DNA of 7,837 nucleotides, from the IMG/VR virus record IMGVR_UViG_2751185964_000013; one strand, given 5' to 3'. A program made the position numbers. The DNA is from a virus. Taxonomy: Duplodnaviria > Heunggongvirae > Uroviricota > Caudoviricetes. Each line of letters begins with the position of its first letter. Within the stretch, counting starts at the first letter, position 1. Below are positions 3,001 through 6,000 of this stretch, in pieces.

Positions 3001-6000
3001 GCAGGTGATTTATCAGGACGTGCAGCAGGATGATTTTACCGCCGCTAACCATGCGCGCGTGTCACAATCGCAGGGGGATGATATTCAGACGCGGCTGGGT
3101 TTACACAGCGAATGGCGTACCGCGGTTGGTGTCACACCAACATTAGATCTGAATTATTATCACGATCCCCATGCGACGGAAATTGAAGAAGATGGCAGCA
3201 CTATCAGTGACGATGCGGTGAAGCGACGGGGTGAAATAAAAGTGGGAGTCACGGGCAATACCAGTCAGCGAGTGTCCCTGCGCGGCAGCGTGGCGTGGCA
3301 GAAAGGGAGTGATGATTTTGCCCAGACGGCAGGGTTTTTGTCGATGACGGTGAAATGGTAATCACTGTCTAGTCGGCACGGTTGCCGGATGCGGCGTAAA
3401 CGCCTTATCCGGCCTACGGGGAGCATTTGTAGGCCTGATAAGACGCGGCAAGCGTCGCATCAGGCATTGGCTCGGCCAAACAACAACCTCACTTATTCTG
3501 CATGTGCAGCATATAGTTCACATCCACGCCGGGGCCGAGTTTAAAAGTATTAGTGAGCGGGTTGTAATGTAGCCCGGTTATATGTCGCTCTTTAAGGCTT
3601 GTCTGATCTACCCAGCCAAGCAGTTCTGCCGGTTTAATAAACTTCTTCACATCATGCGTGCCTTTGGGCACCATGCGCAAAATATATTCCGCGCCAACCA
3701 CCGCCATCAGCCATGACTTGCCGTTGCGGTTAAGCGTCGAGAAAAAGACATCGCCGCCTGGTTTCACCAGTTGCGCACAGGCTCTGACCACTGACTGCGG
3801 ATCGGGGACGTGCTCCAGCATCTCCATGCAGGTCACCACATCATACTGCCCGGCATGTTTTGCCGCGTGCTCTTCCACGGTTTCCTGCACATAATCCACC
3901 TGAATGCCGCTTTCCAGCGCGTGCAGTTTTGCCACCTGCAATGGCTCAAAGCCCATATCCAGACCGGTCACCGTCGCGCCTTCGCGCGCCATACTCTCGG
4001 CCAGAATGCCGCCGCCACAACCGACATCGAGCACCTTTTTGCCAAATAAACCGCCAGCACGCTCGGCAATATAGCCCAGACGCAGCGGGTTAATGCGGTG
4101 CAACGGTTTGAACTCACCTTCAAGATCCCACCAGCGGGAGGCGACGGCTTCAAATTTAGCGATCTCTTCGTGGTCTACGTTATGGTTTTCCGGCGATTTT
4201 TCGGCATTCATTGGCACTTCTACTCCGTAATTGGCAAGACAAACGAGTATATCAGGCATTGGATGTGAATAAAGCGTATAGGTTTACCTCAAACTGCGCG
4301 GCTGTGTTATAATTTGCGACCTTTGAATCCGGGATACAGTAGAGGGATAGCGGTTAGATGAGCGACCTTGCGAGAGAAATTACACCGGTCAACATTGAGG
4401 AAGAGCTGAAGAGCTCCTATCTGGATTATGCGATGTCGGTCATTGTTGGCCGTGCGCTGCCAGATGTCCGAGATGGCCTGAAGCCGGTACACCGTCGCGT
4501 ACTTTACGCCATGAACGTACTAGGCAATGACTGGAACAAAGCCTATAAAAAATCTGCCCGTGTCGTTGGTGACGTAATCGGTAAATACCATCCCCATGGT
4601 GACTTGGCGGTTTATGACACGATCGTCCGTATGGCGCAGCCATTCTCGCTGCGTTACATGCTGGTAGACGGTCAGGGTAACTTCGGTTCCATCGACGGCG
4701 ACTCTGCGGCGGCAATGCGTTATACGGAAATCCGTCTGGCGAAAATTGCCCATGAACTGATGGCCGATCTCGAAAAAGAGACGGTCGATTTCGTTGATAA
4801 CTATGACGGCACGGAAAAAATTCCCGACGTCATGCCAACCAAAATTCCTAACCTGCTGGTGAACGGTTCTTCCGGTATCGCCGTAGGTATGGCAACCAAC
4901 ATCCCGCCGCACAACCTGACGGAAGTCATCAACGGTTGTCTGGCGTATATCGATGATGAAGACATCAGCATTGAAGGGCTGATGGAACACATCCCGGGGC
5001 CGGACTTCCCGACGGCGGCAATCATTAACGGTCGTCGCGGTATTGAAGAAGCTTACCGTACCGGTCGCGGCAAGGTGTATATCCGCGCTCGCGCAGAAGT
5101 GGAAGTTGACGCCAAAACCGGTCGTGAAACCATTATCGTCCACGAAATTCCGTATCAGGTAAACAAAGCGCGCCTGATCGAGAAGATTGCGGAACTGGTA
5201 AAAGAAAAACGCGTGGAAGGCATCAGCGCGCTGCGTGACGAGTCTGACAAAGACGGTATGCGCATCGTGATTGAAGTGAAACGCGATGCGGTCGGTGAAG
5301 TTGTGCTCAACAACCTCTACTCCCAGACCCAGTTGCAGGTTTCTTTCGGTATCAACATGGTGGCATTGCACCATGGTCAGCCGAAGATCATGAACCTGAA
5401 AGACATCATCGCGGCGTTTGTTCGTCACCGCCGTGAAGTGGTGACCCGTCGTACTATTTTCGAACTGCGTAAAGCTCGCGATCGTGCTCATATCCTTGAA
5501 GCATTAGCCGTGGCGCTGGCGAACATCGACCCGATCATCGAACTGATCCGTCATGCGCCGACGCCTGCAGAAGCGAAAACTGCGCTGGTTGCTAATCCGT
5601 GGCAGCTGGGCAACGTTGCGCGATGCTCGAACGTGCTGGCGACGATGCTGCGCGTCCGGAATGGCTGGAGCCAGAGTTCGGCGTGCGTGATGGTCTGTAC
5701 TACCTGACCGAACAGCAAGCTCAGGCGATTCTGGATCTGCGTTTGCAGAAACTGACCGGCCTTGAGCACGAAAAACTGCTTGGCGAATACAAAGAGCTGC
5801 TGGATCAGATCGCGGAACTGTTGCGTATTCTTGGTAGCGCCGATCGTTTGATGGAAGTGATCCGTGAAGAGCTGGAGCTGGTTCGTGAACAGTTCGGTGA
5901 CAAACGTCGTACTGAAATCACCGCCAACAGCGCAGACATCAACCTGGAAGATCTGATCACTCAGGAAGATGTGGTAGTGACGCTCTCTCACCAGGGCTAC

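Follow-up and report, generated by a model that had tools for sequence, protein, structure and literature searches.

A one-base loss that splits gyrA at codon 421 in a Shigella-like DNA stretch is very probably a sequencing error

The gyrA gene in the 7,837-bp stretch of DNA analysed in this study (the window) is interrupted by the loss of one C from a CC doublet. It is highly probable that this loss is a CC-to-C base-calling or consensus error and that the strain has an intact gyrA carrying the S83L substitution; the gyrA split is very probably not a real biological feature. The best explanation for the gene itself is an ordinary, single-copy, S83L-bearing gyrA from a Shigella flexneri-like chromosome. 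In the proposed course of events, one C of the doublet would have been under-called so that GCC GCG was read as GCG CG, the split at codon 421 would be an error of the deposited sequence arising in base calling or consensus building, and the organism would almost certainly make a normal GyrA of 875 amino acids. Reads or resequencing would be expected to show GCCGCG at the site. The original prediction had also preferred a sequencing or assembly indel, and that preference is supported here by the private nature of the deletion, its position in a CC doublet, the error-rich character of the only other sequence that carries it, the existence of other frameshifted gyrA genes in public assemblies, and the absence of any recoding or restart signal.

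The window contains the following features:

1-326: IS1 fragment, about 91% identical to IS1B
After the IS1 fragment, up to about 3361: yfaL, a pseudogene of an autotransporter gene, frameshifted at 1565 and with CAG changed to TAG at 2831-2833
3489-4259, minus strand: ubiG, divergent from gyrA
4358-6984, plus strand: gyrA
7133 onward: yfaA, cut short by an IS3-family insertion at about 7516

The genomic context is that of a conventional gyrA, with a divergent ubiG upstream and yfaA downstream, and the same order is found in the E. coli loci L001 and L002 and in the Shigella loci L004-L012. For region 4300-7000, a gyrA match was obtained in each of the 5,426 complete E. coli genomes, the best matches being 99.7-99.8% identical at the DNA level; among the matches listed, every best match spans 2,702 bases, compared to 2,701 in the window. 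The predicted domain architecture is likewise that of GyrA when the two fragments are taken together. Pfam places the DNA_topoisoIV breakage-reunion domain (PF00521) on residues 32-413 of the N-terminal fragment (profile positions 1-374 of 432), while the C-terminal fragment contains profile positions 375-432 of the same domain followed by six GyrA_C beta-propeller repeats (PF03989). In its DNA identity, in its combination of PF00521 with six PF03989 repeats and in its ubiG-gyrA-yfaA context, the window gene thus resembles E. coli and Shigella GyrA with S83L, from which it differs in that its coding sequence is interrupted.

The flanking genes point to a Shigella-type chromosome. The yfaA gene (encoding a DUF2138 protein) runs for 131 codons before an IS3-family element begins at about 7516 (TGAGGTAGCCTGAGTTTAACGG...), which we take to be IS600, an element typical of Shigella, and at least 24 public Shigella-type contigs share this insertion. 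Relatives of the window were found by looking for exact matches to the truncated YfaA product, which led to Shigella-type chromosomes. When all 7,837 bases were compared with two of these, L004 (CP026807.1) and L012 (CP026823.1), there were only three differences, namely a SNP in IS1 at position 33, the S83L SNP at 4605, and the gyrA deletion. Because these loci differ from the window at three positions only, the gyrA lesion is either not real or else very recent and private. A comparison with yfaL is instructive in this respect. This gene, which encodes a YfaL/EhaC AIDA-I-type autotransporter adhesin, has three lesions in the window (the replacement of its 5' end by IS1, the 1-bp deletion at 1565 and the nonsense change at 2831-2833), and the frameshift at 1565 is common to the relatives L004, L007, L009 and L012. 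Since relatives carry it too, the yfaL frameshift is a real lineage feature, whereas the gyrA deletion is private by contrast.

Within gyrA, the lesion and the frames on either side of it are arranged as follows, all on the plus strand:

4358-5707: upstream gyrA frame, 449 aa (ORF list and translation)
4358-5620: gyrA codons 1-421 in the authentic frame, covering the N-terminal part of the breakage-reunion domain
4604-4606: codon 83, TTG, giving S83L (translation); L004 and L012 have C at 4605, giving TCG (Ser)
5599-6984: downstream ORF, open from GTG 5599, which includes the acidic GyrA C-terminus and ends at the natural gyrA stop (6982-6984)
5618-5620: deletion site at codon 421, GCG where the reference has GCC and then GCG
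5621-5707: out-of-frame tail of 28 codons and a TGA stop at 5705-5707 (translation)
5623-6984: gyrA codons 423-875 in the authentic frame (453 aa), covering the rest of the C-gate/coiled-coil region and the C-terminal beta-propeller, with the natural stop at 6982-6984

A base-level alignment of the window with the annotated E. coli locus L001 and eleven other loci identified one indel inside gyrA. Where the references read GTT GCC GCG ATG, the window reads GTT GCG CGA TG, so that one C of the CC doublet, adjoining C5619, is gone; the alignments to L001-L012 place the gap at window 5618/5619. The single uninterrupted frame of about 875 codons that characterises GyrA is therefore lost at codon 421, and putting one C back restores a GyrA of 875 aa that is identical, S83L apart, to that of L004 and L012, the nearest two loci. 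These results confirm most of what had been proposed for this gene: two overlapping frames with stops at 5705-5707 and 6982-6984 were recovered in the ORF list and by translation, the base said to be missing within 5618-5623 is the C lost beside C5619, the split expected near codon 421 affects that very codon upon reinsertion of one C, and the S83L change is present, codon 83 being TTG (Leu) where the nearest relatives have TCG. One detail needs correction, as the authentic continuation had been described as lying in the +1 frame but is found in the -1 frame (equivalent to +2) when the upstream gyrA frame is taken as the reference. S83L is the classic quinolone-resistance substitution.

The deletion proved to be exceedingly rare in public data. 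Positions 5570-5670, a 101-base query centred on the site, found matches in 5,316 complete E. coli genomes, and the deletion is present in none of these, because the best identity obtained was 99.0%, or 101 of 102 bases. The 40-mer spanning the site was not found in GTDB (one genome per species), the deletion is missing from 10 related Shigella loci in the alignment, and a search of 153 billion called genes, a collection that includes assemblies of public read sets, turned up neither product (449 aa or 453 aa). Among the frameshifted gyrA fragments recovered by a search of 5.8 billion proteins, none has the junction GNVARCSNV, and a real allele is therefore without independent support. A literature search on frameshifted or pseudogenised gyrA in Shigella returned nothing relevant.

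The sole other carrier emerged from a scan of metagenome contigs, which gave one exact match, at positions 6040-6079 of L013 (ENA OQER01000489.1), corresponding to window 5601-5640. L013 is a human gut metagenome contig with a k-mer coverage of 1.57, and it belongs to a different E. coli lineage: it differs from the window in 92 places, and the 5' end of its yfaL is intact. S83L is present in L013 as well, and the occurrence of the same deletion together with S83L is a counterpoint to error in that it can be read as recurrence. However, L013 has 19 indels in 6.4 kb when compared with an intact E. coli locus, and 15 of them are deletions. Twelve of the 15 drop one base of a 2-3-base homopolymer, and one of the deletions falls in gyrA only 54 bp upstream of the shared site. 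With this density of indels at 1.6x coverage, L013 was rejected as a recurrent real mutation; given the 18 indels other than the shared one, error is the better reading of this contig. The match probably arose by coincidence, through an under-call of the same doublet, and a single coincidence is unsurprising because the collection holds many E. coli contigs, although it might hint at a platform-specific error hotspot. L013 can be taken as a positive control for the error explanation, one that identifies the CC doublet as a place where under-calling happens.

Other public assemblies contain gyrA genes broken in comparable ways. The related Shigella assembly L003 (PTES01000002.1, 5975-8601) has its own gyrA frameshift, which yields products of 267 and 590 aa; in this case a G was dropped from a GGGG run at the equivalent of window position 4996, and two further private deletions occur within 7 kb, all three of them in runs of four or five G. 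In L014 (GCA_948470095.1, CAOKTR010000001.1, 3012-5631), a 4.8-Mb E. coli contig, gyrA is divided among at least three ORFs (245, 115 and 330 aa), presumably as a result of uneven long-read error. No break is seen in the adjacent yfaL and ubiG of L014; a gene for a short-chain fatty acid transporter (PF02667) close by is split too. Finally, when the final 120 residues of the 449-aa product were used as the query, many short Enterobacteriaceae GyrA fragments were recovered that share the out-of-frame tail of the window, with junctions that all differ. On the strength of L003, L014 and these tail-sharing fragments, frameshifted gyrA is a recurrent artefact of deposited assemblies.

That indel errors in long-read assemblies make false pseudogenes is well documented (PMC12007338; bioRxiv 10.1101/2021.08.23.457338), and gene-fragmenting errors of this type are the target of both Kastor (PMC12007338) and proovframe (bioRxiv 10.1101/2021.08.23.457338). 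The window gyrA resembles the false pseudogenes of long-read and flow-based assemblies in several respects. A single base of a short homopolymer is lost in one assembly, a conserved gene is converted into two adjacent ORFs, one inserted base restores a perfect match to relatives, and the gyrA genes of L003, L013 and L014 provide parallels. We infer membership of this class in spite of two differences, in that the window has one indel in 7.8 kb and that this indel lies in a 2-base run and not in a long one. It is also important to note what these differences mean for the error explanation. The change from CC to C within GCCGCG is a single-base length change in a homopolymer, but a doublet is only a weak homopolymer and the resemblance is correspondingly weak. 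Moreover, because the 7.8-kb window has no other private indel, the stretch is not obviously error-rich, which counts against error. None of the Dam, Dcm or EcoKI methylation motifs, considered as a cause of systematic nanopore error, was seen to overlap the site on inspection by eye.

There are two ways in which the deletion could be real, and they differ in where a functional GyrA would come from. In the first, which we regard as extremely unlikely, GyrA function would be recovered in translation, either by a chance change of frame or by the reassembly of two polypeptides. A change of frame could occur through a +2 hop of tRNA-Ala from GCG 5618-5620 to GCG 5620-5622, giving GyrA minus one Ala, or through a -1 slip on G_GGC at 5608-5611; since positions 5599-5704 are open in both frames according to the ORF list, any -1 or +2 shift in this overlap would lead to a full-length protein. 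It also speaks for this route that GCG re-pairs exactly after the +2 shift and that the next codon is CGA, which is slowly decoded in E. coli. Nevertheless, the re-pairing at these two sites is only fortuitous, and chance ribosomal frame shifts usually occur at well under 1%. The overlap 5599-5704 contains neither an X_XXY_YYZ slippery heptamer nor any homopolymer of at least 4 bases, and the downstream RNA fold at 5624-5723 is unremarkable (z = +0.70, with 148 of 200 shuffles folding at least as well). Furthermore, all of the relatives have an uninterrupted frame and carry no such lesion, and because the flanking sequence is otherwise identical to that of intact gyrA genes, no evolved recoding signal is possible. 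Programmed frameshifting and transcriptional slippage were rejected as candidates, there being no heptamer, no run of at least four bases and no special fold. The E. coli genes prfB (+1) and dnaX (-1) offer the closest comparison, as in both cases two overlapping frames jointly encode one protein; in contrast to these, the window has no slippery site, internal Shine-Dalgarno sequence or structural stimulator, and the frameshift is not conserved.

The alternative route to translational rescue would have an N-terminal polypeptide (residues 1-420) and a C-terminal polypeptide (residues 423-875, from ATG 5623) reassemble across the C-gate dimerisation domain. The position of an in-frame ATG right at the break favours this route, but neither ATG 5623 nor GTG 5599 is preceded by a Shine-Dalgarno sequence. 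Their predicted anti-Shine-Dalgarno pairing (-2.7 and -2.2 kcal/mol, respectively) is at the background level of the window (median -2.4 kcal/mol), compared to -6.3 kcal/mol for the true gyrA start. The downstream ORF hence does not have the start of its own with a ribosome-binding site that would mark the second cistron of a split gene, and internal re-initiation as a designed feature was rejected for want of a Shine-Dalgarno sequence. The location of the break is equally relevant. It was originally proposed to lie within the breakage-reunion domain and not at the boundary of the N- and C-terminal domains, and the Pfam and structure matches bear this out. The break is inside PF00521, between profile positions 374 and 375 of 432, and residue 421 is in the middle of the C-gate module because the GyrA14 dimerisation fragment spans residues 363-494 (PDB 1x75, 4ely); rescue would require this dimerisation domain to function when cut mid-way. 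With the break inside PF00521 and GyrA14, the truncated product would miss half of the C-gate dimer interface and the whole C-terminal DNA-wrapping domain. It is the coiled-coil region of GyrA that forms the C-gate (PMC8368997).

Alignments to Gram-positive GyrA structures end at about residue 406-412, and the break may therefore fall in a lineage-variable segment of the C-gate, which would favour rescue. According to Reece and Maxwell, GyrA reportedly tolerates proteolytic splitting at the boundary between its N- and C-terminal domains, a point that also favours rescue. The known divisions of GyrA are at this domain boundary, at about residue 520-570. The tryptic 64-kDa N-terminal and 33-kDa C-terminal pieces of two-fragment GyrA, as well as GyrA14, are comparable to the window products as independently folding GyrA fragments, but the break in the window is at residue 421, in the middle of both GyrA14 and PF00521, and its second piece has no expression signal.

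In the other case, which we consider highly unlikely, the deletion would be real in the sequenced DNA without affecting the working allele, whether as a minority or late variant, as a mutation of a cloned or amplified template, or through the presence of a second intact gyrA. The 5,426 complete E. coli genomes contain 5,428 gyrA places, indicating that two genomes hold a second gyrA-like place, which lends this explanation some support in addition to its general plausibility. By the same count, second copies occur in about 0.04% of genomes and are thus very rare, and gyrA is essentially single-copy in E. coli; one of the gyrA places is on a record labelled as a plasmid. The window itself gives no hint of a duplication. 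As gyrA is an essential gene, a further objection applies to a variant arising in culture since, to our knowledge, null mutations in essential genes cannot reach a majority there. A CC-to-C error in the deposited sequence remains the preferred reading.

If the split is an artefact, the gyrA of this record should be handled as intact and S83L-bearing in resistance typing, and its frameshift is a warning that the source assembly still contains indel errors. If it were instead true, being clonal and with no second gyrA in the genome, the consequences would be considerable. An essential gyrase subunit would tolerate a break within the C-gate domain or, alternatively, chance ribosomal hopping would be able to sustain an essential gene. 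Either outcome would mean that an essential type IIA topoisomerase subunit is functional despite a break inside the breakage-reunion domain, in a viable quinolone-resistant Shigella.

A further difference from E. coli was observed at GyrA residue 476 (window 5781-5783), which is Gly in the window and its closest Shigella relatives but Asp in the E. coli loci examined. Gly476, in the coiled-coil region, seems to be a polymorphism of the lineage and is unrelated to the frameshift.
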